The notes: generated from the sequence alone by a model not told the origin. DNA of 40,013 nucleotides from an uncultured Candidatus Saccharibacteria bacterium (GCA_964592945.1 CAZQGK010000001.1:9224-49236), one strand, 5' to 3'. Counted from the stretch's first letter, positions 18,172 through 38,536 are shown. Program-made: numbers and translations.

Positions 18172-18921
18172 TCAAACAGTGTCCGCCAAGTCGCCGGTGT
18201 AATATTTAATAATGGGGGTGGTGAGCGGCCTGTCTTTCGTGACCGTAAATCCTTCCTTGGTAGCGACCAGGAGGCAACCGGGAACAGGGATAAAAACAGG
18301 TTCGAGTGCGAACTCGGCTTCGGCAAATGCGCCGACCGCGGCTGCGGCGCGTACCAAGCGCATCCGACGCGCGTACGCGGTGAACGGCTGTAGTGTTCGT
18401 GTGTCAAAAGTCTCTCCTATGACCGTTATCGCCTCGAGCATTTCCTCCCGCTCCGCAAGGTATGGTGCGAGCTTTGTGAGCGCCCGTTCATCGGTGATGA
18501 GCGAATCGACGTTATACTTTCGAGCCGCAAAGGCGGCAATGTCGGGATCGGCCTCGCCGACGAGAGGGACCATGCCGTTCTCGTAACACCACACCGACTT
18601 CTCGAGTGCCTCATGAGAGTTCTCCATGTACACCAGCGGCCGCTTTGAGATGACGCCGAACGGTTCACGCGCAATATCCTCAAAGGCCCACTCGGAAAGA
18701 AACGATCCGTTCGCAGTATGAATAATCTTTACGAGAGAGATGTCGTCTTTGTATCTGCGTGTGGGAAGCGGAGCGCGCACGAAGTCGTCAATGGTAACAA
18801 GCGGCAACTCGTCGAAGGTGCGCTTGCCTCCCCATAGTTCCCGGTAAAAGGAAGCCTGAGGGTGGCTGGCAACAGCAGCGATGAGCCGCTCTATCTTATT
18901 GTTATCACGTAATTCAGGCAT
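18172..18921 (-). CDS. B-family protein B2: ligase paralogue with no P-loop
   Basis: 249 aa, alignable along its length with B1 and B3 (SFYRELWG, RRYKDD, FLSEWAFEDIAREPFG, HEALEKSVWCYENGMVPL, KYYTGD). The P-loop position reads IHTANGSF. Confidence 0.75.
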   Translation of the reverse strand: MPELRDNNKIERLIAAVASHPQASFYRELWGGKRTFDELPLVTIDDFVRAPLPTRRYKDDISLVKIIHTANGSFLSEWAFEDIAREPFGVISKRPLVYMENSHEALEKSVWCYENGMVPLVGEADPDIAAFAARKYNVDSLITDERALTKLAPYLAEREEMLEAITVIGETFDTRTLQPFTAYARRMRLVRAAAAVGAFAEAEFALEPVFIPVPGCLLVATKEGFTVTKDRPLTTPIIKYYTGDLADTV

Positions 18922-18923
18922 AG

Positions 18924-20039
18924 TTACGTGCGTTGCATAACCTTTACCTCTTTGAATTTGGCGGGAAAGGGTTCGGACACGAACTCGACAACGAGCGGGA
19001 GGAAGTTCTTTTCCGATACAAGTTCCCCGAGTGTCCGCGTAGGAGTGAGAAACAGGTTTTGGGATACCAATTCGGCGATGTGTGCACCTAATTGCGGATC
19101 TGAAACTCCATCGGCGCGGAACACGCGTAGCACGATCTTCCCCGTGATGCGGCCGTCAACTAATTCTTCCGAGGCCTCGGCACGATAGTCGTCGGCCATT
19201 CCCGGCTCCAGTGAAAGTACCCTGTCGAATTCCTCGCGTCGCAAAATCGTCCCGGCAATTTTCAAGTAGTCGAACCCACGCCTGCCGACAATTTCAAAAG
19301 TAATCGCCTCACCGCACGGGCAGGGACCGCACATACGCACAATATCGCCGGTGCGATATCTTTCTATCGTAACTCCCTGCGGTAAATGTCTCGTCACCAG
19401 GAGGTCGCCGTACCCGTGCTCGTCCGGCTCGCGTATTTCTATCGTTACGTCCTTGGCGGGATGGTACTGGTTCAGAGGAGTGTGCCCGCACGACGGCAAC
19501 GACACGGGCAAAAACAATTCCGTCACATTGTACATAGTCCGGATGCGGGCAAAAGGGAAACTCTCGCGCAGTAATTTTACCCGTGGTTCGGTCATCACCT
19601 CGCCTGCGACATCCATAGTACTCACTCCGCGTCGAACATCCTCAGGAACGTTCGACGAGAGCTTGATGGCGAACGATATGAGCCCGCGTATATGGTCGGG
19701 TGCGAATTCACTGAGCAGACGGGGAAGCTCCGGAGTGAAATCGTCGTAATCCAGGGCAAGCGATGCAGATCTGTTGCACGCAGGGTTGCTCCTCATTATA
19801 ACGAGATACCTCAAACGTATGCTTCGCGTACCGACACAGGTAAGACGCCGTCTTGAGTCGCCCACCCAATCCGGCGCAAGACGCCCGGCCGCAACGGCCA
19901 GCATGAGCCCCTTACCTGTGCTTCCGGAGGTCGTACACAAGCAATACGCATACACGTCTTTGTGCCCTTCACGTATCACTTCAGCAAGAAGAGGATCGCA
20001 TATGACCCGCGGCGCGTCTTTACGCTCTAATATCTCCAT
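18924..20039 (-). CDS. Short PaaK/F390-synthetase-like adenylate-forming ligase A2
   Basis: 371 aa with CTTSGSTGKG (P-loop), YRTGDIVRM, CPCGEAITFEIVGRRGFDYLKIAG and a C-terminal KFKEVKV. The start lies 6 nt after the C1 stop. Confidence 0.8.
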   Translation of the reverse strand: MEILERKDAPRVICDPLLAEVIREGHKDVYAYCLCTTSGSTGKGLMLAVAAGRLAPDWVGDSRRRLTCVGTRSIRLRYLVIMRSNPACNRSASLALDYDDFTPELPRLLSEFAPDHIRGLISFAIKLSSNVPEDVRRGVSTMDVAGEVMTEPRVKLLRESFPFARIRTMYNVTELFLPVSLPSCGHTPLNQYHPAKDVTIEIREPDEHGYGDLLVTRHLPQGVTIERYRTGDIVRMCGPCPCGEAITFEIVGRRGFDYLKIAGTILRREEFDRVLSLEPGMADDYRAEASEELVDGRITGKIVLRVFRADGVSDPQLGAHIAELVSQNLFLTPTRTLGELVSEKNFLPLVVEFVSEPFPAKFKEVKVMQRT

Positions 20040-20045
20040 AGCGCC

Positions 20046-20270
20046 CTACTCCAAAAAACCTCCGCAACTAACAAAGAGTATCTTATTCGGATTTTGTTTC
20101 GGCGCTTGTTGCACGCCGCTATCGGGCGAGCACTCATTGTCCGAAGCAAGTTTCGGCGTATTGTTGTGAGCGAAAAATTGCTGTACGTATATATATGTGT
20201 ACAAGAGCGCGGCAAACACGAAGGCCGCAGCGACGATGACCATTTGGCGGATAGTGATGCGCTCTCGCAT
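20046..20270 (-). CDS. Tail peptide C1: 74-aa N-terminally membrane-anchored peptide ending ...NPNKILFVSCGGFLE
   Basis: It has a basic N-terminus (MRERITIRQ) and a TM helix (MVIVAAAFVFAALLYTYIYV). The C-terminal SCGGF is shared with three other small ORFs but encoded by different codons. TACAAT lies 6 nt upstream of the ATG. Confidence 0.75.
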   Translation of the reverse strand: MRERITIRQMVIVAAAFVFAALLYTYIYVQQFFAHNNTPKLASDNECSPDSGVQQAPKQNPNKILFVSCGGFLE

Positions 20271-20276
20271 AATTTC

Positions 20277-20282
20277 ATTGTA
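20277..20282 (-). promoter_or_regulatory. -10 box (TACAAT) 6 nt from the C1 ATG; TTGCCC lies 16 nt further upstream
   Basis: The reverse strand reads TTGCCC-16 nt-TACAAT-gaaatt-ATG, with no SD. The spacer contains the 20288..20303 inverted repeat. Confidence 0.4.
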
Positions 20283-20324
20283 GCGCGTGCCCGTACGCGG
20301 GCAAGCCGCGGCTATATTACCGCC

Positions 20325-22031
20325 ATGTTACAATGGGGCACCATGTGTTTTTCTCCGAAGGAGCTTCCGAGCGGAGCCGTTTTGGGAGGATGTCTACTGG
20401 CCGTTCTTGCTCTTGCTCTGCTGGGAGTGTTCATATTCCGGGAGTGGACGACCTCTTTCTTCAGCTCCGCATTGCAACAAGCTAACGTCATCGAAACCGT
20501 AAGCGTACAAGGGGGCACCTACCATGTCGATCGCGGCTTCGTCTCAACATCAGATGCCGTTCCGGTCCAACCCGCACGAAAGATCGGGGCGCTCCGCCTT
20601 GCATACGCACTTACGCTTGCGAAGCGTTCGCCTCTCATCGCCCTTGCGGGAACGGATGCGGACAAACTGGATACGGCAACCACGCAATTGGAGGCGGTGC
20701 AGAATGCATTGGCCGATTTACAGAGCGAAGAAAACGACAAGAGACTGATCCGGAATACGCTCTTTCCCATACGTTGGCTCCGGGCGCTTGCGGATACCGA
20801 ACGGGCCCGGCAGGCATTTCTCACGAACAGTTCCGATCAAAATGAGACGAGGTATCGTGCGGCGCTTGAAGCTGCCGCCGTGGCTTTTGAGAGCGATTTG
20901 AGCCGGTACCGTGCGGCATTTGCGCAGACTGCGATTCCTTCCCAACGGATTGCCGTGATGAGCGGGATCGAAACCACGGAGAGCATTCTGCATGCGATAG
21001 ATGAGGCCGGGGCAGGCATGCAGGCAACGGGGTCGCGTCTGCGCAATCGAGAACGTTGCCTTTCGGGTCTCTTTTGGTTTTGTGGTGAGCGGGATCTCGC
21101 CATTCCTGCACTGGACGAACCACGCGACGTGCGATCGGGTGCGGCATCTCGCCTTCCCGCGGACGTGAACGATATGCTCGATCTATACGCCGCGGTCTTT
21201 GGGTTACCGGCGCTGAAGAACCGGACGGTATTTGCCATCAGTGACGATTCTTGTATCGAACCGAGACCGCTACCGCATTATTTCGTGATACCTCCGGACA
21301 ATGGAGCTGGTGTCCCCGACCTAGTACCCCCGATGCTATTTGTGGGAGACACGACTATTAACCGCATTGTAGAGCCGTCTGCGAATTGGAGAACGTTTAA
21401 TCAATATCTTTTGGATCTTGGCGTGAAATATACGCCGGGGAATCCGATCAGCTATTATCAATGTCCTGAGCTAAGAGGTCTTCAGGGGCATATCTTCGGT
21501 ATCGACGCCGTGTTCGAGGAAATACAAAAGGATCCGTCGTGGGCGAAACGCTTCGGTCATGTTTCCGTGGCCGGCACGCGCGTGATATCAGATGGTGACA
21601 TCACCGCATTCCTTGCCTCGACGACGCGCGCCGCGTCCGGGAACGGATCACCGTCGTCCGAGCGCGATCTTCTGACCGAGTTATCACTCATGGTCAAGAA
21701 TCGAAGTGCGGCGCTTGATCGGCTGGTCGCAGCAATTGCAACCATAGATCGTACAATTCCCGGACTGAAACAGTACGGCATTCACGAGGGATTTGACGCG
21801 AACTACCTTCTGATCGCTAAAAGCGGTTTTCCACAACTTTTTGAGACCCAAAATCCGTCGGTCGTCGGCACTACATCAATCTCAGTATTTGTCGGTAAGG
21901 GCTCTCCTCGTCCTTCGAACTCGCTGTGGTATTCACAATTGCCGGAGGAAGAAAAAATCACGGCCATGTCCGACTTGAAGGTGTGGGTCCGGCTGCATCG
22001 AGAATTCCTTAAGTCCGGCGTTGCTCCGTGA
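20325..22031 (+). CDS. D-family protein D1: membrane-anchored, uncharacterised, four conserved Cys
   Basis: The start is set at ATG 20325, with TATATT 6 nt upstream. The track start 20094 overlaps the divergent C1 gene. It has a TM helix (AVLGGCLLAVLALALLGVFIF) and blocks shared with D2 and D3: ALRLAYA..A.RSPL.AL.GTD, C-x2-G-x4-C and Y.C.E. Confidence 0.7.
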   Translation: MLQWGTMCFSPKELPSGAVLGGCLLAVLALALLGVFIFREWTTSFFSSALQQANVIETVSVQGGTYHVDRGFVSTSDAVPVQPARKIGALRLAYALTLAKRSPLIALAGTDADKLDTATTQLEAVQNALADLQSEENDKRLIRNTLFPIRWLRALADTERARQAFLTNSSDQNETRYRAALEAAAVAFESDLSRYRAAFAQTAIPSQRIAVMSGIETTESILHAIDEAGAGMQATGSRLRNRERCLSGLFWFCGERDLAIPALDEPRDVRSGAASRLPADVNDMLDLYAAVFGLPALKNRTVFAISDDSCIEPRPLPHYFVIPPDNGAGVPDLVPPMLFVGDTTINRIVEPSANWRTFNQYLLDLGVKYTPGNPISYYQCPELRGLQGHIFGIDAVFEEIQKDPSWAKRFGHVSVAGTRVISDGDITAFLASTTRAASGNGSPSSERDLLTELSLMVKNRSAALDRLVAAIATIDRTIPGLKQYGIHEGFDANYLLIAKSGFPQLFETQNPSVVGTTSISVFVGKGSPRPSNSLWYSQLPEEEKITAMSDLKVWVRLHREFLKSGVAP

Positions 22032-22047
22032 CCCGTACGTGGAGATG

Positions 22048-22425
22048 TCACACAGGAAATTCGCGTCTCTCAACCTCGCGAACCCTCTCCGGCTTAAAGT
22101 ACTTCTTAGCCAGCACAAAAAAACGCTCCGCTTTGGCGTCGTTATTTTCTGAATAATGACAATAAAACAGACGGATATGTGCGGTGCCGGCTTCGGGCCA
22201 TGTGTGTATGTCAACGCTGGATTCTCCAATTATCACAGAGACCGTCACTCCGCCTGCACCCTCAAACTTTTTACTCGCGACCGGCTCATATACCGTAAAG
22301 CCGGCCTTGCGCACGAGTCCTGCAAACGCAGCGCCTAGATCTGCATCGGTCAGTGCTGCGACATTCGCACAGTCCTGAAAAATCCAGCCGCGATCGATGC
22401 TTATGGTATCGTTCATGGTCCGCAA
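22048..22425 (-). CDS. speH: S-adenosylmethionine decarboxylase proenzyme (small, pyruvoyl-dependent type)
   Basis: 125 aa with VIIGESSVDIHTWPE, which is the self-cleavage Glu-Ser site and the HTWPE motif. Confidence 0.85.
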   Translation of the reverse strand: MRTMNDTISIDRGWIFQDCANVAALTDADLGAAFAGLVRKAGFTVYEPVASKKFEGAGGVTVSVIIGESSVDIHTWPEAGTAHIRLFYCHYSENNDAKAERFFVLAKKYFKPERVREVERREFPV

Positions 22426-22428
22426 ATC

Positions 22429-24093
22429 TTACGGAGTACTAATGATGCTCGGTAATCCGCGTTCGTATTCTAACTGTCGGACCGCATTAAATCTATACTG
22501 TGGCTGAAGGAATTGAGAAACAGCGGGATTGCGGTCAGTGGATATGATGTCCTTATGAGTGTCAAAATACCGGCGCTCAAACGGCGGCATGTGGAACAGT
22601 CCGGCATGCCTGGAGGATTCGTACCAATGATCCCCCTCAACAACTTTCTTCCTGCGAACGACGCGCGGATCGTATGCATCACTTGCAATGACCGATGCTT
22701 GGATTGCATCTGTCGTGCTACGTATTCCTCCCGCATATTCATACCGGTAGGTATATTTGAACACAGATCGTATGGTGGCTAAAATTACCGTCTGCGCCTC
22801 CAGATACTGGTTATTTGGTATGTGCGGGACAAGTATTCCGCCGGGAGAGAGGCGTGTCTTAGCAAGTTCATAAAACTCCTTCGACCACATACTGCTAAGC
22901 TGTGCCCTGCGCGGAGCAGGCACGTCGACGATTATTATGTCGAACTGTTGGTCGGTTTGTTGAAGGAACGTACGCCCATCCATGAAATGGCGTTCAATAC
23001 GTGGGTCATCAAAAACGCCGCCATTCATCTTTTGCAGATATTTTCGCGAAAGATTCACAAGCTTCTCGTCTATGTCCACATGCACAATGTGCGGGATGCC
23101 GGCGCGAACCAGTTGATACAGCGCTCCCCCGTCACCTCCACCGATGACCAATACTCGTTGCGCATCCGGATGTGCATTCACGGCCGGGAGGACGGAAAAT
23201 TCATGGTATGCGCGCGAAACCGTTCCTACGAATAACGTATCATCGAAATACAGGGAGATCCCGAAGGTGGGGTGGTCTATTATGGCGCTGTATTGAAATG
23301 GGGAGTGCGCGGCCTCGATCGGATTATAACGTGTTGCTAAACGAAAGAACGAGAGACTCGCTTCGGTAAAATACTTCTGAGAGCCGAAAAGAAGCGTACT
23401 TCCTCCAATTAATACCGCGATAGAAAGCACTATCCCGAATAGCTTTTTCTTCTCAACAAGGGAAAAAATGAGGAATACCGTGGCCGCATTTAGAATACCG
23501 CCTGCAATCATTGTCCCTTCGAGTCCAAGGAGCGGAATGAAGAAAATGCCTGCAGTTAACGCTCCGAGTACACCACCTAGGGTGTCCCCGGCATACACAA
23601 CACCGACATGCGTCCCGGAATGGGTCTCGCCTCGCTCCAACCATTGAACGGCCACCGGCAACTCGATACCCATGAGAAACGAGGGAAAAAGCAACGCCCA
23701 TGAAATGAACAGCGACTTCATCGCGAAAGTGGAAGAGTATATCCCGAGTGCCTCGGCAAGCGCAAAAAAAGAAAAGCCGTATAGCGCTATAAGCGCCTCG
23801 GCAACAACAAACAACAGAAGGAGGGGGTACTTGCGTCGCGTATACCAGGCGCCGGCAAATGCACCGAGCCCCAATCCTCCCATGAACCCTCCGATGACCA
23901 TGCCGGCGGAAAATTCAGTAATACCGACGAGGGTGGTTACAAATGAAAGCAACACCACTTCGTACATAATGCTCGCCATCCCGGTAGCAAAGAGGATAAG
24001 AAATAACAATGTGAGCGCGGTCGAATAGCCGACGTACGTGCCTGCATATGAACGAATCAACTGCAACATAATGGTCCGGATATTAATGTGCAT
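22429..24093 (-). CDS. speE: Polytopic membrane domain fused to a spermidine/polyamine synthase domain
   Basis: 554 aa. The N-terminal ~220 aa are multi-TM. The C-terminal part has VLVIGGGDGGALYQLV, VDIDEKLV and DIIIVDVPAP (aminopropyltransferase fold). The start at 24093 overlaps the E2 stop by 11 nt; ATG 24069 is an alternative. Confidence 0.8.
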   Translation of the reverse strand: MHINIRTIMLQLIRSYAGTYVGYSTALTLLFLILFATGMASIMYEVVLLSFVTTLVGITEFSAGMVIGGFMGGLGLGAFAGAWYTRRKYPLLLLFVVAEALIALYGFSFFALAEALGIYSSTFAMKSLFISWALLFPSFLMGIELPVAVQWLERGETHSGTHVGVVYAGDTLGGVLGALTAGIFFIPLLGLEGTMIAGGILNAATVFLIFSLVEKKKLFGIVLSIAVLIGGSTLLFGSQKYFTEASLSFFRLATRYNPIEAAHSPFQYSAIIDHPTFGISLYFDDTLFVGTVSRAYHEFSVLPAVNAHPDAQRVLVIGGGDGGALYQLVRAGIPHIVHVDIDEKLVNLSRKYLQKMNGGVFDDPRIERHFMDGRTFLQQTDQQFDIIIVDVPAPRRAQLSSMWSKEFYELAKTRLSPGGILVPHIPNNQYLEAQTVILATIRSVFKYTYRYEYAGGIRSTTDAIQASVIASDAYDPRVVRRKKVVEGDHWYESSRHAGLFHMPPFERRYFDTHKDIISTDRNPAVSQFLQPQYRFNAVRQLEYERGLPSIISTP

Positions 24094-25441
24094 AGGATTC
24101 TGTATGGCCCGCAGCCTTCCGGGCCTCTTCGCGAATACGGCCGCTTTGCATGATGAGCTCCAACTGTTCCGCGGTAGTATCTTCGAGTATCGCGTCCGCC
24201 GATCGATATAGTATGCCTTCCGGCTTTACCCTGCCGGAACCGAGGAAATTGGGCTTTTCAGCAATCCTCCACACGCTCTCATTAAACGGTAGATAGTAGA
24301 TGCTCGGATGAGTGCGCATGAGAACCCAGTACCATGCAAGGTGGGACGTGAACGTACCGTGCCGCATATGATCTTTCGCGTTCTCAAGGACGGTCTGGTG
24401 GTCCTCTACGCATGCTCCGAGAAGCAGATCGATCAGGCTCGATTTTTGCGCCCGCAGTGCTTGCGCGTCGAGCGACGGCCTGCGATGGATATCAACGATC
24501 GTCGAAACATCCGCCCAATATGTCTGATCGCGCATCGTATAAAAGTTTGTTGACGGCTGATACCAATATGGTATCCCCTTGCCTCTGAGATGCGCCAGTG
24601 AGCTCAGTTTTGTTGTATCAGGACCGATTTTCTGGAAGAGAAATAGATCAAGCGCAGAGATTTTGAGGCTCACGGTGCCGCTCCGATCATCGCGCACGAT
24701 ATAGAGCATGAACGGGTGTGTGGTCGGCGTACCGTCAAACTGTGATAGTTCGTATGCAAAAGGTCCGTGCTTCTCGAGGATGGTGCTGCGTCGAAATGGT
24801 AAGGAATGAGTGAGCTCGAGTTCGTGAAGGTGGGCGTAGCGTGCGGGGGCAGTACACTGCCGGTATTTCAGATCTGTTTCCGCAGTAGTTGGCTTTGGGA
24901 TCCGGGAACATTCCTTCCCCGCGGCAATCTCTTGGCGTGCTATAAGCTCGACACGCAGCCGATCTGCATTCGCACGAAGCGTCCGTAACGTGTGGTTAAT
25001 ATCCGAAAGAGTACTCGTGTTGCCATGCATATCCTGCAGCGGAGCCGCTTCTGCATTCTTGCGGTCAAGGCTGAGAAGTATGCGGTGCATCCGCGTGAAG
25101 CGCGCGACATCGGCACCATACGCGCTGCACGTAACATCCCATGCTTCAAGCAGATCACGCTGTGAGCGCCCGGTCGGGTTCGCGAGAAAGTGCCGGCGGC
25201 AGCGCTCGCTCTCGATGAACGCCCGAATGAACGACAGGGGAATGGCGTACCGCGTAAGCGGGTACCGCGTAAGGAACAAGCGTCGCATGAGCGAATGACC
25301 GCCGACTGCCTCCTCGAATTCACGGGCGACCGACTGAATGGCATCAAGCGCCGTCTCGGCGCGCTCAAGGTCCATGCCCACAGCGGCAAAGAGAGGGTCG
25401 TTTCGCACCAGATCAACAAATGTTTCCGTAACGCCTTTCAT
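24083..25441 (-). CDS. E-family protein E2 (paralogue of E1)
   Basis: The start is set at ATG 25441 (MKGVTETFVDLVRNDPLFAAVG), which aligns with the E1 N-terminus. TATACT lies 6 nt upstream. The track start 25465 adds 8 aa. It is collinear with E1 to the C-terminus (TTAEQLELIMQSGRIREEAR versus TTPEEMDLIMQGGRIRKEAR). Confidence 0.7.
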   Translation of the reverse strand: MKGVTETFVDLVRNDPLFAAVGMDLERAETALDAIQSVAREFEEAVGGHSLMRRLFLTRYPLTRYAIPLSFIRAFIESERCRRHFLANPTGRSQRDLLEAWDVTCSAYGADVARFTRMHRILLSLDRKNAEAAPLQDMHGNTSTLSDINHTLRTLRANADRLRVELIARQEIAAGKECSRIPKPTTAETDLKYRQCTAPARYAHLHELELTHSLPFRRSTILEKHGPFAYELSQFDGTPTTHPFMLYIVRDDRSGTVSLKISALDLFLFQKIGPDTTKLSSLAHLRGKGIPYWYQPSTNFYTMRDQTYWADVSTIVDIHRRPSLDAQALRAQKSSLIDLLLGACVEDHQTVLENAKDHMRHGTFTSHLAWYWVLMRTHPSIYYLPFNESVWRIAEKPNFLGSGRVKPEGILYRSADAILEDTTAEQLELIMQSGRIREEARKAAGHTESYAH

Positions 25442-25542
25442 GGCGATAGTATACCCTTTTGCCAAGGCAAAACGATTAGTATAGTATCAGCCACTGGTTC
25501 AAATCGTGGCGGATATCCGTCACAAGTACAAGGAGAAGGACA

Positions 25543-26535
25543 TTGAAAATACTTGCAAGAGTGGCTGCTGCGGCCGTGTTGGTCGTTGCATCTCTTGGGT
25601 TCGCGCAAGCGTATCCCGATGGGCCGGTGCGCGTTATAGTCCCGACGCAGGCCGGTAACCCGGCTGATATCGTGACGAGGATCTTGTGCGACAAGTTGAG
25701 TGAGATCCTCGGGGCTCGATTCTTCGTCGAAAACCGCCCCGGAGCATTCGGCGAGATCGCGTTCCGTGACCTCGTGCGGGCAGCTCCGGACGGTTACACG
25801 TTGGGGCACTCCGGCAACGGCCCGATAACTATCCTACCCGCTGCGCGAGTTGCAGCGGATATGCCGAAAGACAAGATCCCGTACGACCCGATACGGGATC
25901 TCGAGCCCATCAACTTCACCGCTTACGACCAATTCGTCTTTGCGGTGCCGAGGAGTAGTCCATTTCGCTCCTCGAAAGAGCTGGTGGACTATGCCCGGGC
26001 ACATCCCGATGAGCTCGCGATAGCCGCGGGTACACCGAGCGGCAGGTTGGCGGTTGCCTTCCTCAACGCAATCCCTGGCGTGCGCGTCAGGGAAATCGGA
26101 TCCGGACAAGGAGAGGAAACAGCGTACCGGGATATCCGTAGCGGCGAGAAGATTGACGGTATCTTCTCCACGGTGCTCGGGGCTCTTCCGAAAGAAGACA
26201 TCGTGCGACCGCTTGCCCTCGTCGGCGGGACCAGAACCCCACTGTTTCCAAACGTGCCAACGATGGTCGAAGAAGGATTCGAGACCTTCGACGCGAGAAT
26301 GGAAGCCTGGTACGCCTTCACCGGGCCGAAGGGACTTCCAAAGCCCATCATCGAGAAGCTGAGTAAGGCGATCGATACGGCCGTGCGCGATCCGCGCGTC
26401 CAAGAAAGGTTGGCGAAAATCGGCATCACGACTCGCCATTCGACAACCGCGGTTCTCAGCGATGAGATTGCGCGGCAGTACAAGGGACTGGCGGCGTTTA
26501 TGAAGGAGAACGGGGTCAAGTTGCTCGGTAAGTAG
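25543..26535 (+). CDS. Bug/TctC-family solute-binding protein (TctC-2), orphan
   Basis: 330 aa with a TTG start after AGGAGAAGGA. The signal peptide ends FAQA and is followed by YPDGPVRVIVPTQAGNPADIVTRIL. Confidence 0.85.
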   Translation: MKILARVAAAAVLVVASLGFAQAYPDGPVRVIVPTQAGNPADIVTRILCDKLSEILGARFFVENRPGAFGEIAFRDLVRAAPDGYTLGHSGNGPITILPAARVAADMPKDKIPYDPIRDLEPINFTAYDQFVFAVPRSSPFRSSKELVDYARAHPDELAIAAGTPSGRLAVAFLNAIPGVRVREIGSGQGEETAYRDIRSGEKIDGIFSTVLGALPKEDIVRPLALVGGTRTPLFPNVPTMVEEGFETFDARMEAWYAFTGPKGLPKPIIEKLSKAIDTAVRDPRVQERLAKIGITTRHSTTAVLSDEIARQYKGLAAFMKENGVKLLGK

Positions 26536-26605: not shown

Positions 26606-27724
26606 CTATTGCGAGACTCGTCTAAGCTTCACGTCTTTATGTTTTTGAGGAAAGGGCTTGGCGGAAAATGTAACAGTAAGCGGCAAAAACGCGCCCTTCC
26701 CAACCAGGTCGGCAAGCGTCTGCGTGGGCGTAAGAAATACCGCGCGGGAAAAATTGCGGGCAATTTCTTCGGCGAGCGCGGGCGTGCCCTGCCCTTTGCG
26801 AGAGAAGACGTGCAGAATGATACTGCCTTTAAGTTTTCCATTGACAAGCTTTTCCCCCGCTTCCACTCGATAATCATCGATAGAATGCGCAAAGAGCGCG
26901 GCAACCCGATCAAATTCTTCGCGGCGGACGATGGTGCCTGAGATCTTGATATAGTCGTTGCCACCGCGGCCAAGATGTTCAAATGTGACCGGAGCGCCGC
27001 ATACGCACGGCTCGTTACTCAAGCGGCCTATATCGCCGATCGCATATCGCTCAATGTGTTCTCCGTACGAAAGGATTTTGGAGACGATAATATCGCCTAC
27101 TTCCGTTTCGTCCCTATCAATAATATCGATTTTGACGTCGGGTGCCTCGTGGTAGACATTTGGCGGGAGGTTTGTGCACTGCACGCCGATGAGGCCGATC
27201 TCGTTCGTCCCGTAGAACATCGTGATGCGGGCAAGCGGCGCAAGCGACCGGAAGGATTTGAGGCGCGCTGGCTCCAGGCGCTCGCCGGCGAGTCGGAACG
27301 TGCGAATAGCCTGAGGTACGACGGGCGTGGAAACCTTGAGTACGAGCCCGATAAACGATGCGGTCCCCGATACCTCGTCGGGCATAAGATCCTCGAGTAT
27401 GTTTCCGAGTCGCGGAACATCCTCATTATCAATGTTCAATACTGATCTCGGTTTCTCGCCGCGCGCGTGTCTGAAGTGGAGCGTGTTTGCCAGCCGGACA
27501 TTTCGTGAGCCCATACAGATGAGGAGATTTGAAGTCTCCGCGTACTTCGAAAACTGTCGGTCACCGTACTCTAGGACTGAGACGATAGGAGTGTCAGACG
27601 TCCCAGACGTAAGCCTGATGCCGAACCGGCAAGCCTCACGTGGCACAGAGGCAATAAAATCTTCGAGTAGCCGCGCATCGACCGCCGCGATATCTGTGCG
27701 ATCTACGAATCCTCCATCCGTCAT
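26606..27724 (-). CDS. Short PaaK/F390-synthetase-like adenylate-forming ligase A3
   Basis: 372 aa with RLTSGTSDTP (a variant P-loop), FYGTNEIG, YAIGDIGRL, CVCGAPVTFEHLGRGGNDYIKISG and a C-terminal KHKDVKL. It has an ATGA overlap with the B3 stop. Confidence 0.75.
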   Translation of the reverse strand: MTDGGFVDRTDIAAVDARLLEDFIASVPREACRFGIRLTSGTSDTPIVSVLEYGDRQFSKYAETSNLLICMGSRNVRLANTLHFRHARGEKPRSVLNIDNEDVPRLGNILEDLMPDEVSGTASFIGLVLKVSTPVVPQAIRTFRLAGERLEPARLKSFRSLAPLARITMFYGTNEIGLIGVQCTNLPPNVYHEAPDVKIDIIDRDETEVGDIIVSKILSYGEHIERYAIGDIGRLSNEPCVCGAPVTFEHLGRGGNDYIKISGTIVRREEFDRVAALFAHSIDDYRVEAGEKLVNGKLKGSIILHVFSRKGQGTPALAEEIARNFSRAVFLTPTQTLADLVGKGAFLPLTVTFSAKPFPQKHKDVKLRRVSQ

Positions 27725-28474: not shown

Positions 28475-29626
28475 CTATATTCGTTGCGACAACCTGACCT
28501 CTTTGCCCTTCTCCTTCTCAAGCTCCGCTCCTCCAAACTCAACCGCAAGCGGCATTATATAACCGGACTCCACGAGTGTATTAAGCGTTTTGGCGGCGGT
28601 TACAAATAACTCCTCGGAAAAACGCCGCCGTATTCGCTCTAAAAGAGCGGCGTCACCCTGTCCATCTTTCCGGTATATCTTTAGGGTTATTCTGCCTTTG
28701 AGCTTTCCCCCCGACATGACACTGTCAACGTGGACGAAATAATCATCCATCAAATCGCTGCACAACAGTGCCACCCTGTCGAATTCCTCCCTTCGCAATA
28801 TTACGCCGGCCACTTTGAGGTAATCGGACCCGCGTTTCCCCACCACTTCGAAGGTGACCTTTTCACCGCATGCGCATTCTATACTATGGAGTCTGCCAAC
28901 ATCTCCGATTTTGTACCGTTGTATGGAAATATTTCTGTTGAAATTTTTTGAGATCAATATATCACCAACCCCGCTATCGTCGGGTCCGGCTATCTCCACC
29001 GTCACGCCATCGTGCGGGTGGTACTGATTCGGAGGCAGAAATCCGCAAGAGGGTTTTGATATCTGACCGGTTTCTCCGGAAGAATATAGCATCCGTATTT
29101 CCGCGTAGGGGAAAGAAGTGCGTATCAGTATCTCGGCCTTTTTTGACAGACCCTCCCCCGTAAACCGCAGACTGTTGATTTTTCTTCTCGCCTCTTCGTC
29201 CAAATAGTCGGTCATTTTGGAGATAAAGAATGGAAATCCATACAATCTGTCGGGCGCAAAATCAGAAAGTAGCTCGGAAACACCCTGTATCATATCGCGC
29301 GCATCCATAACAATAACGCGGGACGGACTGCCCGGATCACTGTTCCTCAAGAAAAGAAGCGAGCCAAGCCTCATTCCCAATACACCTTGGCAGAGGAGCG
29401 TTCTTTTTGCGCCGGCGGGAAATGTATGGATGTTGACCCCGCTTCCCCATGCGAGAAGAAGCGGTTCGCCGCCTGATGTGCCGGACGTCATGCGCAGACC
29501 ACAACGCTTGGCCTCTTCTTTCGGCGCGGACAAAAGGTCCGCCAGCATTTTTTCGGCCACAGGCTTAAAATCCCCGCGCTCCATGACGGAAGCAGTACGC
29601 ATTTCACTTTTCTTGAAGCTTTTCAT
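28475..29626 (-). CDS. Short PaaK/F390-synthetase-like adenylate-forming ligase A4
   Basis: 383 aa with RMTSGTSGGEP (P-loop), LYSSGETG, YKIGDVGRL, CACGEKVTFEVVGKRGSDYLKVAG and a C-terminal KEKGKEVRL. Confidence 0.8.
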   Translation of the reverse strand: MKSFKKSEMRTASVMERGDFKPVAEKMLADLLSAPKEEAKRCGLRMTSGTSGGEPLLLAWGSGVNIHTFPAGAKRTLLCQGVLGMRLGSLLFLRNSDPGSPSRVIVMDARDMIQGVSELLSDFAPDRLYGFPFFISKMTDYLDEEARRKINSLRFTGEGLSKKAEILIRTSFPYAEIRMLYSSGETGQISKPSCGFLPPNQYHPHDGVTVEIAGPDDSGVGDILISKNFNRNISIQRYKIGDVGRLHSIECACGEKVTFEVVGKRGSDYLKVAGVILRREEFDRVALLCSDLMDDYFVHVDSVMSGGKLKGRITLKIYRKDGQGDAALLERIRRRFSEELFVTAAKTLNTLVESGYIMPLAVEFGGAELEKEKGKEVRLSQRI

Positions 29627-29777: not shown

Positions 29778-29830
29778 TTTCATCGGCTTGTTCCCAAGCC
29801 AAAATATTTGTGGACACAAGGGAGGAATCG

Positions 29831-32851: not shown

Positions 32852-32908
32852 GCGCGCAGGCACGTACAAATATCTGTTCCGACGTGCTGAATCAGGGAGA
32901 ACGAACGC

Positions 32909-33883
32909 ATGAAGCTACGACCTGTGGCCGCGGCGCTCATCGCGCTCGCGTGCCTTGCTGCCTCTCCGGCGAAAGCCGCGGAGGAATACCCGTGCCAAGG
33001 AACGGTTCGTTTCGTCGTCGGACTCCCGGCGGGATCCACGACGGACGCCATCGTGCGTCAGATAGCGGGTGAGATGGCACCGCTTCTGAAGCGGACGATT
33101 ATCGTTGAGAACATCGTGGGCGCCGACGGTGCCCTCGGTGCGCGAAACGCGCTCGCAAGTGCAGCCGACGGGTGCAACTACCTGGCGGCGACCAACGGCA
33201 TGCTCGGCATCGAACAGAGGCTGGGGCCGCAAGGCTTCGACCTCGAAAAAGCGGTGCCGGTCGGCATGTTCGCCCGCAACTACCAAGTGCTCGTAGTTCA
33301 CCCGGCGGTTGCCGCGAATTTGGGCGAGTTGCTCGCGTACGTGAAAGCGAATCCCGGGACGCAATTCGCGCGTTCCGCGACTTCAAGTCTCATCGCTTGC
33401 GCCTACTTCGCAAAGAAGGCGGGGCTTGCGATGAAAGACATCTTCTACAAAGGCGATCCGCTGCTGATGCAGGACGTAGTTGCCGGACGTGTGCCCGTGG
33501 CATGCCCGTTCCTGTATCCGGTCCGCGGACAAATCGAGGCCGGTGCATTGCGGGCGCTCGCCATCCTTGGGCCCGGGCCGTTCAGCGAGTTGCCGACCGT
33601 CCCGGCGATTACCAATGTGCTTCCGGGCTCCGAAAAGCTCGGGGCGCTCGAGGGCCGCGGTTTCTTCGTGTGTCCTCCAGGATGTCCGGAGGCGGCCGTC
33701 GAGATGTTCTCGCGATATCTGCGGGAAATTCTCGCAAAGCCTGCAACGGTTACCCGCTTCCGCGAAAGCAGCGCGGAGGCGGTCTACATGACGCCGGGAG
33801 CAACGGCGTTGTACATCAAGTCGCAAAAAGCCCTTTTTACCGAAGTGGTGCGGGAAATCGGGCTGGAGTTCAAACCAAAATGA
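32909..33883 (+). CDS. Bug/TctC-family solute-binding protein (TctC-4), orphan
   Basis: 324 aa with SD AGGGAG upstream. The signal peptide ends PAKA and is followed by AEEYPCQGTVRFVVGLPAGSTTDAIVRQI and ...VENIVGADG. Confidence 0.8.
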   Translation: MKLRPVAAALIALACLAASPAKAAEEYPCQGTVRFVVGLPAGSTTDAIVRQIAGEMAPLLKRTIIVENIVGADGALGARNALASAADGCNYLAATNGMLGIEQRLGPQGFDLEKAVPVGMFARNYQVLVVHPAVAANLGELLAYVKANPGTQFARSATSSLIACAYFAKKAGLAMKDIFYKGDPLLMQDVVAGRVPVACPFLYPVRGQIEAGALRALAILGPGPFSELPTVPAITNVLPGSEKLGALEGRGFFVCPPGCPEAAVEMFSRYLREILAKPATVTRFRESSAEAVYMTPGATALYIKSQKALFTEVVREIGLEFKPK

Positions 33884-33897
33884 CCACGCTGGATTTG

Positions 33898-33929
33898 CCG
33901 GCGGCGCCCCTGGGTGCCGCCGGTTTCTT
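33898..33929 (+). terminator. Rho-independent terminator of TctC-4
   Basis: 11-bp stem (ccggcggcgcc / ggtgccgccgg, one G-U pair), cctg loop, then TTTCTTACTT. Confidence 0.55.
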
Positions 33930-33968
33930 ACTTGGAAGAATGTCCGCCGTGCAATACCATACGTTGAA

Positions 33969-34700
33969 ATGAGCAAAGTAGTCACAGCGCCGGAGATGTT
34001 TGTCGAATTCCTCTCTTCTGTTGAAAAACATATCCCAGAAATGGAGTGTCGTGTTTTCCCCTCCTCTTTCGATGCCAACGACCCAAATCTGCGGGCAATT
34101 CCGCGACCGGTGGATTGGCAATGGACATCGTGTGAGCGGGCGCTCCGGCACGCTAATTCCAAAGGCGTGATGATGCGGCTACCGACATTTTGGCAAATCG
34201 GATTACCGCTTCATGCTGCATGTCGTGCGGTGGGGATTCCCATTTTCGTGAACGAGCCGGAAAATATTCCCGTCGGCGCCATGGCCCTCAAAACAGGCGG
34301 CATTGATACGGTCGTCACGGAAAATCGCGACGCGGCCGCATTTGCGGAGTACCTCGTCGCGCAAAAACTGCCCATGCCGCGATTGGGAATACTCGTGCAC
34401 CGAATTGAAGACGCATGGGACGTGTCCCGCGTAGTTCTCGATACGTGGAGTCTCGTCGCGCAAGAGGTGCACGCATTTCCCGGAGTACCCGTACTCGAAC
34501 AGTGCGCCGCGCTTTCAGCAGAGAAGGCCTCGCGATTCCATCTCTCCGATTCCTATCTCTGGGAAATTACCGGCGACGAGACATTGATAACGGGCAAGAG
34601 TGGCGACCCGATACCGCTTTCCCGATACCGGCTTCCCTGTTCCCTCAAAAAATCAGGGGAATGCTCTTGCGGAAAACCCGTATTCGAGCGACGCCTATGA
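33969..34700 (+). CDS. F-family protein F1: N-domain-only ligase paralogue with no P-loop, second type
   Basis: 243 aa. The pattern EVHAFPGVPVLEQCAAL...FHLSDSYLWEI...LSRYRL...GECSCGK follows the PaaK N-domain and stops at the CxCG motif. There is no TSGTTG-type P-loop. The stop overlaps the A5 start (ATGA). Confidence 0.7.
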   Translation: MSKVVTAPEMFVEFLSSVEKHIPEMECRVFPSSFDANDPNLRAIPRPVDWQWTSCERALRHANSKGVMMRLPTFWQIGLPLHAACRAVGIPIFVNEPENIPVGAMALKTGGIDTVVTENRDAAAFAEYLVAQKLPMPRLGILVHRIEDAWDVSRVVLDTWSLVAQEVHAFPGVPVLEQCAALSAEKASRFHLSDSYLWEITGDETLITGKSGDPIPLSRYRLPCSLKKSGECSCGKPVFERRL

Positions 34701-35962: not shown

Positions 35963-35985
35963 ACGTAGTTCTGTACCGCCCCGCT

Positions 35986-36013
35986 TTGACAACACCTTGG
36001 AAGCCGCTACAAT
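35986..36013 (+). promoter_or_regulatory. Promoter of C3 (TTGACA, 16 nt, TACAAT) with the -10 box 7 nt from the ATG
   Basis: ttgaca at 35986..35991, a 16-nt spacer, and tacaat at 36008..36013, followed by cggagct and ATG 36021. This predicts a leaderless or near-leaderless mRNA. Confidence 0.55.
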
Positions 36014-36020
36014 CGGAGCT

Positions 36021-36272
36021 ATGCACAGGCTATCTCTTTCCGGGGTACGTCTTGTTTTGGTTGGTATTGCGGCGTTCGTTCTGGGAGTTATAGGTTTCTT
36101 TTCGTATACAGGTACGTCGCCGTCCTTCCAGAAACTATCCTGCAGCGTGCGCGACGCACTTACGAGCGTAAATATATTCCGCGATTCATCTCCTATCGCG
36201 TCTGCCGGATGTGAGAACAAAACCGGCGAGGATGGCGAGATATACTACGTAAGCTGTGGTGGCTTCTTCTGA
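36021..36272 (+). CDS. Tail peptide C3: 83-aa membrane-anchored peptide ending ...GEIYYVSCGGFF
   Basis: ATG 36021 lies within track ORF 35901..36272. It has a basic N-terminus and a TM helix (LVLVGIAAFVLGVIGFF). The C-terminal VSCGGFF is identical to C4. Confidence 0.7.
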   Translation: MHRLSLSGVRLVLVGIAAFVLGVIGFFSYTGTSPSFQKLSCSVRDALTSVNIFRDSSPIASAGCENKTGEDGEIYYVSCGGFF

Positions 36273-37002
36273 TAGGCGCACAACGCCGGAAATGCTGATT
36301 GCGGAGCTCTCCGCAATTGAGCCGCGCATTCCGGAAATGGAGTGCCGCATTTTCCCATCCTCGTTCAATCCAAAGGACACTGATCTGCGCGCCTTTCCGC
36401 GGGCGATACATTGGCGATGGACTTCGTGTGAGCGCATGCTTCGATTCTTCGGTGCACAGGCGGTCATGACGCGAGTCCCGAACTTTTGGCAGCTTGAGTC
36501 GCTCGTTCACGCGTGTTGCCGGAATATCGGTGCGCCGCTTTTTACAAACGAACCGGAGAACCTGGCCTTGGGCGCGGCGGCTATCGTTTCTGCAAACGTC
36601 AACGCGATAATCAGCGAAGCGTCAGAGACCGCTCCATTCGTATCGTTTCTTCTTGAGCGGGATGTGCCGCTACCCGCGCTGTGGCTTCTCATCCATAAAG
36701 CGGACGCGCGCGAATGGAGTGTCCCTCCTTCGCTTATACAAAATGGAATTACCGTAGCGCAAGAGGTCCACCTATTTCCCGGGGTCCCAATTCTCCATCA
36801 ATGCCCGGCTCTCGCGAGCGACAAAAAACCCCTATTCCATGTGTCTGATGAGTACGAGTGGGAGATGTTGGAAAGCGAGACGCTTATTACGAGCGCCGGC
36901 GGCGACCCGCTTCCACTACACCGGCTGCTCCTGCCCATTTCTATCCATGCCGCCGGGGAATGCGCGTGCGGAAAAACAATTGTTCAAAAGCGCACCGTAT
37001 GA
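36256..37002 (+). CDS. F-family protein F2 (paralogue of F1)
   Basis: 248 aa from GTG 36256, which overlaps the last codons of C3; ATG 36292 is an alternative. It is collinear with F1 (IPEMECRIFPSSF, EVHLFPGVPILHQCPAL, GECACGK). The stop overlaps the A6 start (ATGA). Confidence 0.65.
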   Translation: MVASSDRRTTPEMLIAELSAIEPRIPEMECRIFPSSFNPKDTDLRAFPRAIHWRWTSCERMLRFFGAQAVMTRVPNFWQLESLVHACCRNIGAPLFTNEPENLALGAAAIVSANVNAIISEASETAPFVSFLLERDVPLPALWLLIHKADAREWSVPPSLIQNGITVAQEVHLFPGVPILHQCPALASDKKPLFHVSDEYEWEMLESETLITSAGGDPLPLHRLLLPISIHAAGECACGKTIVQKRTV

Positions 37003-38252
37003 ACCTCGAAGCCCTCAGTTCCCTCGTTACCCGCGCAACGGCCCCGGGCCGTTTCTACCGCCGCTTGTACGGCATGAAGGAAGGTGATGCGCCGCTTTCA
37101 ATCAATTCATGGGAGGAGTGGAAAACGCTGCCGCTCCTTACGAAAAGCGACCTGCTCAATGAGCCGCTTTCTGAGCGATCGTTCTTGCCAATCCGCGACG
37201 TTGACTATCTGACATCAACCTCCGGCACGACGGGGACGCTCCCTTTATTCAGTCCTCGTACCCAACTGCTCGAATATGAGTTCCGAACGGAATTTTACGA
37301 TGCCGCGGGACCGGTATTTTCATCCAAACTAGTTCCACACCAGCAGGAACAATTCCTCTCCGCGCGCAATCTCTGGCCGCGTGTTGTCGTCATAGACCCG
37401 CGCAACCCCGAAAGCTCCGTACGCCTCGCGCGCGCGGCCGGAGTCGACGCCATTTTTGCCTTCCTCTCTCACATTCCGCTCGTTGCCGGGCATATGGTGC
37501 GGGAAAGCATTGCAGAGAACATCCGGTTTATCGAGGTTGCAGGCGAGACCTGCTCGCGGGCGCAATTTGAATATATGCACAGGACATTCCCGAACGCGGT
37601 CATTATCTCAACCTATGGATTGAGCGAAGTGGAAAACTCTCCAGTCGGCATTCCCTGCCGCCCCATGACTGCCGGGAATCCGCTCCCTGTGTACCATGCA
37701 AAAGATGGCGTCTATTTAGAACTCCTCGATACCAAAACGGGTACAGTGCTCGAACCGGAAGCGGGCGTTGAGGGAGAATTGGTCATCACCGCATATCGTG
37801 GCGAACCGGCGGCATTCCCGACTCTCCGGTATAAGAGCGGCGACACCGTGCGCGTTGTTGACGAACACTGCACCGCTCATGGCTCATGGTCATTCACTGT
37901 CCTCGGGCGCTCCGACATTGATTTTGTGAAGATCCCCGGCGGCATGCTCAAAGTCGACGAAATTGGACGCACTCTTCGCGCCCTGAACGATGTGGTCACG
38001 GACAATTTTGTTCTGCATCTTCGAAACGCCGCTGACGGAGCACGGACACGGGCAATACTGCATGTCGAGCCGCATGCGGCGGTTGATCTCGCTGTTTTAG
38101 CCGGCCGTATCGCCATTGAATTGCGTGTCTCGCCCACTTCTAGCTATGCCGACGGCGTCGCACAAGGTCTCTACGAACCGCTGATATGCCAACTCCTCGA
38201 CAAAGCACGAGGCGACATATATAAGCAAAAGAGCATCATCCTCGAGCCGTAG
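36999..38252 (+). CDS. Full-length PaaK/F390-synthetase-like adenylate-forming ligase A6
   Basis: 417 aa from ATG 36999; the track start 36858 lies inside F2. Motifs are FYRRLYG...WEEWKTLPLLTKSDL, TSTSGTTGTLP (P-loop), YGLSEVENSP, YKSGDTVRV and GRSDIDFVKIPGG. Confidence 0.8.
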   Translation: MNLEALSSLVTRATAPGRFYRRLYGMKEGDAPLSINSWEEWKTLPLLTKSDLLNEPLSERSFLPIRDVDYLTSTSGTTGTLPLFSPRTQLLEYEFRTEFYDAAGPVFSSKLVPHQQEQFLSARNLWPRVVVIDPRNPESSVRLARAAGVDAIFAFLSHIPLVAGHMVRESIAENIRFIEVAGETCSRAQFEYMHRTFPNAVIISTYGLSEVENSPVGIPCRPMTAGNPLPVYHAKDGVYLELLDTKTGTVLEPEAGVEGELVITAYRGEPAAFPTLRYKSGDTVRVVDEHCTAHGSWSFTVLGRSDIDFVKIPGGMLKVDEIGRTLRALNDVVTDNFVLHLRNAADGARTRAILHVEPHAAVDLAVLAGRIAIELRVSPTSSYADGVAQGLYEPLICQLLDKARGDIYKQKSIILEP

Positions 38253-38284
38253 GCATGCGGCTCCCATGTCCCGCTGCTACCCCG

Positions 38285-38293
38285 TGGTAAAAT
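38285..38293 (+). promoter_or_regulatory. Extended -10 element (TGgTAAAAT) 6 nt from the C4 ATG
   Basis: tggtaaaat at 38285..38293, followed by caccgt and ATG 38300, with no SD. Confidence 0.4.
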
Positions 38294-38299
38294 CACCGT

Positions 38300-38536
38300 A
38301 TGGTCGGACATCCTACAGCTCGTACTGTGCGATACGCGGCGCTTGGGGTCGTCTCGTGCATATTGACCATCATCGGCCTGCAGACCCTCACCCCGCGCTC
38401 GGCGACATTGCAAAGGATTCTTCACGTAAGCACGTCGGGGGACGGGGTCTTCGCCGACAGTGGTTCCGCCTGCATCGTTGCAAAGAAGAGCTTGAAGAAT
38501 GAGGTTTTCTTCGTGAGTTGCGGAGGGTTCTTCTAG
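38300..38536 (+). CDS. Tail peptide C4: 78-aa membrane-anchored peptide ending ...NEVFFVSCGGFF
   Basis: It has a basic N-terminus, a TM helix (LGVVSCILTIIGL) and the C-terminal VSCGGFF. D3 starts 27 nt downstream. Confidence 0.7.
   Translation: MVGHPTARTVRYAALGVVSCILTIIGLQTLTPRSATLQRILHVSTSGDGVFADSGSACIVAKKSLKNEVFFVSCGGFF

Follow-up and report, generated by a model that had tools for sequence, protein, structure and literature searches.

Gene content of the locus

The stretch of DNA analysed here, referred to as the window, comprises 40,013 nucleotides (CAZQGK010000001.1:9224-49236 of assembly GCA_964592945.1, deposited under Candidatus Saccharibacteria) and encodes four short peptides with a C-terminal Cys-Gly-Gly tail (C1 to C4) together with ligases that resemble PaaK (A proteins), two types of ligase partner (B and F proteins) and two further families, D and E. 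These genes are organised in two paralogous kinds of module, termed type I and type II, in which the class of the peptide tail, the form of the ligase and the type of the partner match in all adjacent pairs found in the window and its relatives. We hold this modular description to be correct with high confidence. The co-variation had been proposed from the sequence of the window alone, for positions 18172-38536; this earlier proposal is called the sequence-only reading below. The module genes of the window are the following.

Type I genes
20046..20270, minus strand: C1, type I precursor peptide, 74 amino acids, tail NPNKILFVSCGGFLE, with an N-terminal hydrophobic helix and a second conserved cysteine; 6 nucleotides upstream of A2
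18924..20039, minus strand: A2, short PaaK-like ligase, predicted to be adenylate-forming, 371 amino acids, peptide-adjacent subtype
18172..18921, minus strand: B1, inactive PaaK N-domain partner with N-terminal microdomain, 249 amino acids; starts 2 nucleotides past the A2 stop codon
30859..31095, minus strand: C2, type I precursor peptide without adjacent ligase (orphan), tail NPNKMLFISCGGFIE
28475..29626, minus strand: A4, short ligase, peptide-adjacent subtype, 383 amino acids
27721..28470, minus strand: B2, B-type partner, 249 amino acids counted from the MEHG start
26606..27724, minus strand: A3, short ligase, second subtype, within the range of 369-383 amino acids; start overlaps the B2 stop (ATGA)
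24083..25465, minus strand: E1, putatively cytoplasmic paralogue of D, without membrane helix and without conserved cysteine
12754..13491, minus strand: B0, third B-type partner, beyond the range of the sequence-only reading
11642..12751, minus strand: A1, short ligase, second subtype, without adjacent peptide
8681..10081, minus strand: E2, second E-family protein, last in the run B0-A1-membrane protein-E2

Type II genes
33969..34700, plus strand: F1, inactive PaaK N-domain partner without microdomain, 243 amino acids
34697..35962, plus strand: A5, long PaaK-like ligase, 421 amino acids; start overlaps the F1 stop (ATGA)
36021..36272, plus strand: C3, type II precursor peptide, 83 amino acids, tail EIYYVSCGGFF
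36256..37002, plus strand: F2, F-type partner, 248 amino acids
36999..38252, plus strand: A6, long ligase, 417 amino acids; start overlaps the F2 stop (ATGA)
38300..38536, plus strand: C4, type II precursor peptide, 78 amino acids, tail EVFFVSCGGFF

D-family genes
20325..22031, plus strand: D1, membrane-anchored D-family protein, divergent from C1
31133..32797, plus strand: D2, the D-family protein that was modelled, divergent from C2
38564..40013, plus strand: D3, D-family protein directly after C4, continuing past the window end

The window thus holds two type II sets and two type I sets, one of the latter being split (8.7-13.5 kb and 18.2-20.3 kb). C1, A2 and B1 follow one another on the minus strand with spacings of 6 and 2 nucleotides; the plus-strand genes are ordered F1-A5-C3-F2-A6-C4, with both F stop codons overlapping the start codons of the A genes. 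Partner and ligase genes are in general joined by an ATGA overlap or separated by 2-4 nucleotides. All four peptides lie where the sequence-only reading had placed them and carry their tails at the very end, and C3 and C4 each directly follow an F partner and a full-length ligase on the plus strand, as it had described. Its statement that the GGF[LI]E-tailed peptides sit beside short ligases is correct for C1, which is next to A2, but not for C2, which is separated from A4-B2-A3 by a strong bidirectional terminator and a TctC gene on the plus strand. A promoter-like site (TTGACA-16-TACAAT, 11/12 matches; 35986-36013, plus strand), the best in the region, lies in the 58-nucleotide gap in front of C3, and C3 may have its own promoter within the F1-A5-C3 run. 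In the scan of the window for promoters and terminators the totals were not above those of shuffled sequence, and the strongest individual sites alone are cited here.

Pairing of tail, ligase and partner across related loci

The comparison set for the window consisted of 37 related loci (31 of them non-redundant), which belong to Kaiserbacteria, Adlerbacteria and other Parcubacteria. Of these loci, 14 came from genomes, 10 from metagenomes with the short ligase as anchor, and 13 were obtained by exact-protein look-up, three of them with D as anchor. Scanning genomes with a single protein returned no loci, and the 14 genome loci were found with a 40-sequence alignment as query. Genes were assigned with hidden Markov models (HMMs) of the families and by a scan for the tail motif.

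The 53 non-redundant peptides in these loci form two classes. In 35 of them two residues follow C-G-x (CGGIY in 15, CGGFF in five, CGGIF in four and CGGTF in three, the rest being single variants), and 34 of these 35 end in Phe or Tyr. The other 18 have three residues after CGG and conform to CGGF[LIF][EDQN]. Peptides with two-residue tails are located directly downstream of a long ligase in 25 of 35 cases and never adjoin a short one, and those with three-residue tails adjoin a short ligase in 15 of 18 cases and never a long one. All 40 adjacent pairs agree in tail class and ligase architecture (25 with a long and 15 with a short ligase, none crossed; Fisher p = 2.5e-11, phylogeny not corrected for). 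The partner matches the ligase form equally strictly, namely in 47 of 47 cases: F is directly upstream of a long ligase in 26 and B in none, and B is adjacent to a short ligase in 21 and F in none. The pairing is kept where the gene order is rearranged, as in locus L035, which reads B-short ligase-peptide-D. Moreover, in the ligase tree the sub-clades of the long form carry tail variants of their own (IY, TF, G-CGGFF and SFF/GGFF).

These data bear out the proposal that tail variant, ligase form and partner type co-vary. Free pairing of tails with either ligase form, which the sequence-only reading had named as its refutation, does not occur among the 31 non-redundant loci. Its distinction between GGF[LI]E and GGFF tails survives as one between two classes, although these are wider across genomes and the second class ends most often in CGGIY. 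Similarly, the two system subtypes that it had envisaged do exist as distinct sets of tail, ligase and partner, but they are paralogous modules rather than alternative systems, since 14 of the 31 loci hold both, and more than two variants occur.

The neighbourhood extends over approximately 31 kb and has so far been found only in Parcubacteria; homologues of A5 occur in Kaiserbacteria, Minisyncoccia and other Patescibacteria. Where both modules are present, they are typically arranged as [B<-short ligase<-peptide I] beside [F->long ligase->peptide II->D->D], and a complete type I module consists of peptide, short ligase, B, second short ligase and E. The second-subtype ligase, represented by A3, is found in related loci downstream of B and upstream of E. 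The same housekeeping genes, encoding a split transketolase, ribulose-phosphate epimerase, RpiB and GAPDH, adjoin the cluster in the window (3384-8674), in L027 (1-2709) and in L035 (1-2716). As the cluster is next to the same sugar-metabolism genes in at least three loci, its chromosomal position appears to be conserved and vertically inherited, and these core-gene neighbours suggest an important vertically inherited function rather than a mobile accessory one.

PaaK-like ligases and their inactive partners

The short ligases (A2, A3 and A4) comprise 369-383 amino acids and the long ligases (A5 and A6) 417-421. The difference is the first approximately 45 residues of the long form, which correspond to the 'FYRxLYG...W..LP..K' segment of PaaK. 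Among curated families the A proteins score best against PaaK, with 57 bits, far below the cut-offs of the NCBIfam equivalogs (646 bits for TIGR02155 and 700 bits for NF041878), and the Pfam AMP-binding score is likewise under its cut-off. Profiles of both forms match solved structures of PaaK (4r1l, 2y4o, 9s3l, 2y27) with E values from 1e-12 to 1e-16. The core motifs of the ANL superfamily are kept in 40 long and 13 short ligases, including the P-loop (SSGTSGKP or TSGTTG), YGxxE, RYRIGD, GRxxxD..K..G and the C-terminal lysine. Judged by these motifs, the A proteins probably have adenylate-forming activity; they belong to the PaaK-like branch of the ANL superfamily without being PaaK itself. 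In the ligase tree the two short ligases of the type I module belong to distinct sub-clades, and A5 and A6 of the window are placed in different long-form sub-clades.

B and F have no sequence match in Pfam, NCBIfam or the PDB (13 B sequences in the Pfam scan). When B or F was aligned pairwise with the long ligase by BLASTP, the FYR motif alone was recovered, so that profile comparison and a structure model were needed to place them. In profile comparisons residues 1-155 of B align to residues 1-171 of the long ligase (probability 94%), which covers the PaaK N-terminal microdomain, and residues 108-243 of B align to residues 85-227 of F (probability 92%). The AlphaFold model of F1, with a predicted local distance difference test score (pLDDT) of 94.1, matches the N-domains of PaaK-family enzymes in Foldseek (NatL2, PaaK1 and AjiA1; 6siw, 6tm4 and 2y27; E 1.8e-10, probability 1.0, template modelling score 0.70-0.75). 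The position of the P-loop is occupied by PSSFxPxDP in F and by HxxxGxFLSEW in B, and both proteins stop at the hinge after approximately 245 amino acids, lacking the P-loop as well as the C-terminal subdomain with its catalytic lysine. F keeps the Cys3His ligand pattern (C179, H191, C232, C234) that is also seen in the ligases. From the loss of the P-loop, the truncation at the hinge, the profile alignments and the F model it follows that B and F are inactive PaaK N-domains.

The two modules solve the distribution of the microdomain in complementary ways. Long ligases contain the PaaK N-terminal microdomain (PMC7497051) and are paired with F, which has none; short ligases are devoid of it and in type I it is borne by B. 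Every ligase-partner pair consequently comprises an active and an inactive core together with a single microdomain. This constant composition, together with the overlapping stop and start codons, suggests that ligase and partner form a heterodimer.

Peptides and their tails

Six-frame translation of the window yields exactly four SCGGF strings, all of them at the ends of small open reading frames and 0-2 residues from the stop codon, compared with 0.0 in 300 shuffles. C1 and C2 end in NPNK[IM]LF[VI]SCGGF[LI]E, C3 and C4 in [YF][YF]VSCGGFF. Across the loci the peptides (median 74 amino acids) share one layout: a short N-terminus containing Lys and Arg, one hydrophobic helix, a linker, a conserved cysteine and the Cys-Gly-Gly tail. 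The invariant Cys-Gly-Gly is held at a fixed distance from the stop codon. In type I five residues follow the cysteine and the last is Glu, Asp, Gln or Asn; in type II four residues follow and the last is Phe or Tyr. Conservation is strongest at the extreme C-terminus and not in the membrane helix. Since all synonymous Cys and Gly codons are used at the invariant tail positions, as are all three stop codons, selection acts on the protein.

The second conserved cysteine, usually preceded by A-x-A or L-A-S-A, lies 14-17 residues upstream of the tail cysteine in type II and 18-24 residues upstream in type I, and it may indicate where the peptide is cleaved or provide a second reactive thiol. A lipoprotein lipobox at this cysteine was rejected, as the motif is A-x-A-C, lies 25-35 residues past the helix and has no Leu at position -3. 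A C-terminal sorting signal or CaaX box was excluded as well: the helix is N-terminal, and the spacing from the cysteine to the end is 4-5 residues and not three.

Besides the two classes, a third peptide variant ending in ...LFVGC[GS]GFF was observed in L007 (490-738), L010 (7367-7729) and L029 (4643-4909). Its copies in L007 and L010 come after a long ligase that is strongly divergent and has a divergent F partner. The L029 copy has no adjacent ligase, but a divergent pair is found approximately 2 kb upstream in the same locus. In L006 (12651-13156) and L008 (12524-13181), tandem type II peptides of unlike tails (CGGIY and CGGTF) come after two consecutive long ligases.

Proposed reaction and alternative explanations

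It is reasonably likely that the peptide tail serves the ligase as a substrate in some way. The likeliest chemistry is adenylation of the α-carboxylate of the peptide followed by capture through the invariant cysteine as a thiolactone, to which we assign a probability of roughly 40%. According to this proposal ligase and partner would act as a heterodimer, the inactive subunit of which would dock the peptide. The ligase would adenylate the α-carboxylate of the last residue, i.e., Phe or Tyr in type II and Glu, Asp, Gln or Asn in type I, and the cysteine, swung round by the flexible Gly-Gly, would attack the acyl-adenylate to give a C-terminal thiolactone of five or six residues. The peptide might then be inserted into the membrane or exported, and D and the binding proteins of the TctC or DctP family that accompany the modules could act on it or sense it outside the cell. 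Adenylation at the α-carboxylate is favoured because the motif is fixed in position relative to the C-terminus, because a change of ligase form goes along with a change in the class of the last residue, because the C-terminal Phe or Tyr of type II resembles the aryl-acetate substrates of this enzyme branch, and because the Gln and Asn variants of type I leave the α-carboxylate as the sole common carboxylate. Thioester formation is the usual second step of ANL enzymes. There are precedents for the individual steps: GrcB forms a thiolactone in a ribosomal peptide in an adenylation-driven reaction using adenosine triphosphate (ATP) (PMC12250964), and the PaaK-like LuxE passes its acyl group to a cysteine in a flexible C-terminal tail (PMC9157457).

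Several observations weigh against the thiolactone proposal. The co-variation of tail, ligase and partner, which the sequence-only reading had regarded as what a cognate enzyme-substrate relationship would yield, suggestive rather than proven, is real as a pairing, but its signal stems mostly from one ancient duplication and conserved gene order with few independent events, which alone is no proof of an enzyme-substrate link. Orphan peptides exist (C2 and L002 4573-4821), as do ligase pairs without a peptide in the vicinity (B0-A1, 11642-13491). The Lys/Arg bias that would define membrane topology of the peptides is weak (N side approximately 2.1-2.3, C side 1.4-1.7). Our literature searches returned no ANL or PaaK-type enzyme that acts on a peptide C-terminus. 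Furthermore, the proposal leaves the roles of D and E, of the binding proteins and of the second type I short ligase unexplained, and the peptide core is highly conserved between genomes, unlike that of most antimicrobial ribosomal peptides.

As an alternative, the ligases could load an acid onto the peptide in the manner of LuxE, adenylating a small organic acid, possibly one caught by TctC or DctP, and transferring it to the invariant tail cysteine. In that case the peptide would represent an S-acylated product or a membrane-tethered acyl carrier independent of coenzyme A (CoA). The normal substrates of PaaK-family enzymes are small aryl or alkyl acids, and the closest structures are PaaK, NatL2, AjiA1 and ClxA. 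Binding proteins of the two families flank the modules in most loci. LuxE itself moves its acyl-adenylate (acyl-AMP) to its own flexible C-terminal Cys motif without CoA (PMC9157457). The fixed distance of the cysteine from the very C-terminus is not directly explained in this way, however, nor is the switch of the last residue between aromatic and acidic or amide with the ligase form, and no TctA/B or DctQ/M was recognised beside the binding proteins of the window. We regard acyl loading as a doubtful explanation.

An outside nucleophile is to be considered as well. The activated C-terminus could be passed to an amine, an amino acid, a polyamine or a protein lysine, with the peptide serving as a scaffold or tag, comparable to pearlin scaffold peptides, Pup and ubiquitin-like proteins, and the cysteine forming at most a transient thioester. 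The evidence for a tail anchored at the C-terminus is equal for this route and for the thiolactone. The high conservation of the core suits a role as scaffold or cofactor, the C-terminal Glu, Asp, Gln or Asn of type I peptides resembles the end of Pup, which is GGQ or GGE, and the second ligase of type I together with the putatively cytoplasmic E could carry out further steps. In addition, genes for an S-adenosylmethionine (AdoMet) decarboxylase and an aminopropyltransferase adjoin the modules of the window; the 37 related loci, however, all lack these polyamine genes. In the modules we recognised no family of condensation enzymes, transferases or proteases, and the invariant cysteine and Gly-Gly would be left without a necessary role. 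Transfer to an outside acceptor also appears unlikely.

The modules can also be set against the ribosomally synthesised peptides that are modified after translation (RiPPs). The arrangement of a short precursor gene beside a tailoring enzyme, by which RiPPs are recognised, is present in 40 adjacencies in 31 loci, with selection at the protein level; among A, B, F, D and E, no RRE domain or known RiPP enzyme family was found in Pfam and NCBIfam. A new ribosomal peptide class of Parcubacteria is conceivable, albeit with little likelihood, in which the heterodimer would spend ATP in the cytoplasm to store a thioester (a thiolactone) between the cysteine and the C-terminus, followed by export and cleavage at A-x-A|C. 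The freed N-terminal cysteine could attack the thioester in the style of native chemical ligation and a head-to-tail cyclic peptide would result. In a variant of this scheme the thiolactone would be a signal resembling autoinducing peptides, read by D and the TctC or DctP proteins.

Finally, the absence of any enzyme-substrate link, with the peptides as small membrane subunits or partners of D, the ligases acting on unrelated small molecules and the co-variation reflecting gene order inherited after a single ancient duplication of the whole neighbourhood, is quite improbable: D is next to the peptides more consistently than the ligases are (orphan C2 included), ligase pairs without peptide such as B0-A1 exist and the two classes are deep clades, rendering the statistics phylogenetically non-independent, but the pairing outlasts the change of gene order in L035 and recurs at the finer level of sub-clades, conservation peaks at the extreme C-terminus, which is unusual for a structural membrane subunit, and only 6 nucleotides separate C1 from A2.

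Relation to known systems

The ligases share the ANL core motifs with PaaK and PaaK-like ligases (NatL2, AjiA1 and ClxA) and have their best structure matches in PaaK, whose N-domain fold is also that of F. They differ in scoring far below the family cut-offs, in the pairing of an active with an inactive paralogue, in the shift of the microdomain between subunits and in the linkage of their genes to ribosomal peptides; no genes of the paa pathway were seen in the window. LuxE is PaaK-like too, proceeds through acyl-AMP and transfers the acyl group to a flexible C-terminal tail cysteine rather than to CoA, and it is devoid of the C-terminal subdomain, as are B and F (PMC9157457). LuxE, however, carries the cysteine in its own chain and uses myristate as substrate. 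Here the cysteine belongs to a separate peptide; the C-terminal subdomain is retained in the A proteins, and B and F, which lack it, lack the P-loop as well. GrcB of the GRC-type ribosomal peptides resembles the proposed chemistry in that a peptide carboxylate is adenylated with ATP and captured by cysteine as a thiolactone near the C-terminus (PMC12250964). It belongs, however, to the E1/ThiF superfamily and has an RRE domain, whereas the ligases described here are ANL-type and no RRE was recognised, and it joins an internal Glu side chain to a C-terminal cysteine, i.e., in the opposite orientation.

Two further systems are similar on the peptide side. The AgrD precursor has an N-terminal membrane-associating helix, and AgrB forms its ring by proteolysis of a C-terminal extension without ATP. 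The helix and the proposed five-residue C-terminal thiolactone, consisting of Cys plus four residues with a bulky hydrophobic end, are shared features, as the AgrD rings CDFIM and CSSLF illustrate when set beside CGGIY and CGGFF. In contrast to AgrD, the peptides here end exactly at the would-be ring and have no C-terminal extension, and neither AgrB nor another Pfam family was matched among the module proteins scanned. MftA, the mycofactocin precursor ending in ...CGVY, is processed by the radical SAM protein MftC, the RRE protein MftB and the peptidase MftE. It is likewise a highly conserved short peptide with a functional extreme C-terminus of the form Cys-Gly-hydrophobic-Tyr, and no proteins of the MftC, MftB or MftE type were recognised here.

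The defining features of agr, GRC and LuxE are therefore missing, either in enzyme class or in architecture, and the system at most works like them. The literature was searched for RiPPs involving PaaK-like enzymes, for PaaK in Parcubacteria and for ANL enzymes that act on peptide C-termini, with no relevant result, and neither the literature searched nor the curated families describe the system. It is so far uncharacterised, widespread in Parcubacteria and probably a new peptide-modification system. B, F, D, E and the peptides belong to no curated family, and although the genomes concerned are very small, approximately 31 kb of the window is devoted to the modules. If the thiolactone proposal is correct, an ANL ligase with an inactive paralogue would be a new kind of enzyme in peptide macrocyclisation, and the system could offer a first entry point into peptide signalling or surface chemistry among bacteria of the candidate phyla radiation. 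The perfect pairing of tail, ligase and partner supplies cognate and non-cognate pairs for direct testing.

D and E families, binding proteins and other neighbouring genes

D proteins have approximately 555 amino acids, an N-terminal membrane helix and four invariant cysteines. E is a paralogue of D (hhalign probability 97.6%) with neither the helix nor these cysteines, and this difference suggests that D would face outward and E would be cytoplasmic. Word-indexed homologue searches with D gave just 2-3 proteins, and an exhaustive profile search found at least 759 cluster representatives. In Pfam no true match was obtained for 84 members, only chance matches or none. The model of D2 is very confident (pLDDT 94.7, predicted template modelling score 0.92) and has no significant match in the PDB or in a viral structure library, and D probably represents a new fold as judged from this model. 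D genes are located directly downstream of peptide genes or divergent from them, and the D tree labelled by the adjacent peptide type is star-like.

The further genes of the window are given below.

6382-6843, minus strand: small protein with a type IV pilin-like N-terminus (GFTLIELLVVIAIIG)
10138-11607, minus strand: multi-pass membrane protein, 489 amino acids, without Pfam or NCBIfam match, inside the run B0-A1-membrane protein-E2
14127-15068, 29810-30799 and 32909-33883: three further TctC proteins, found by family HMM
15146-18146, minus strand: two adjoining membrane-anchored proteins of the sulfatase/phosphodiesterase family, between the TctC gene at 14127 and B1
22048-24093, minus strand: AdoMet decarboxylase (125 amino acids), then aminopropyltransferase (554 amino acids, with a long N-terminal multi-helix membrane domain), between modules
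25543..26535, plus strand: TctC-family secreted binding protein (Pfam PF03401), one of four in the window

A polyamine link as a core feature was set aside, as the genes at 22048-24093 have no counterpart in the related loci. The TctC protein at 25543-26535 scores 115.7 bits against PF03401 (cut-off 27). TctC and DctP family binding proteins typically bind carboxylates, and one or the other is present in 25 of 32 loci, the two families replacing one another. Family scans of the window recognised no TctA/B or DctQ/M membrane components beside these proteins. In many loci (L025-L032, L037) DctP (TRAP) is found instead of TctC, sometimes inserted between the genes for F and the long ligase in the opposite orientation.

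A weak relative of the 489-residue membrane protein was found after B in L021. Downstream of the D-D pair, arrays of three to five Cys-rich, membrane-anchored paralogues of approximately 390 amino acids without a Pfam match occur in L035 (13891-19862) and in at least 17 other loci (e.g., L001-L006, L025-L027, L030); the window, which stops within D3, contains none of them. In L035, the D protein (P0229, 954 amino acids) has a Cys-rich C-terminal extension of approximately 410 amino acids.

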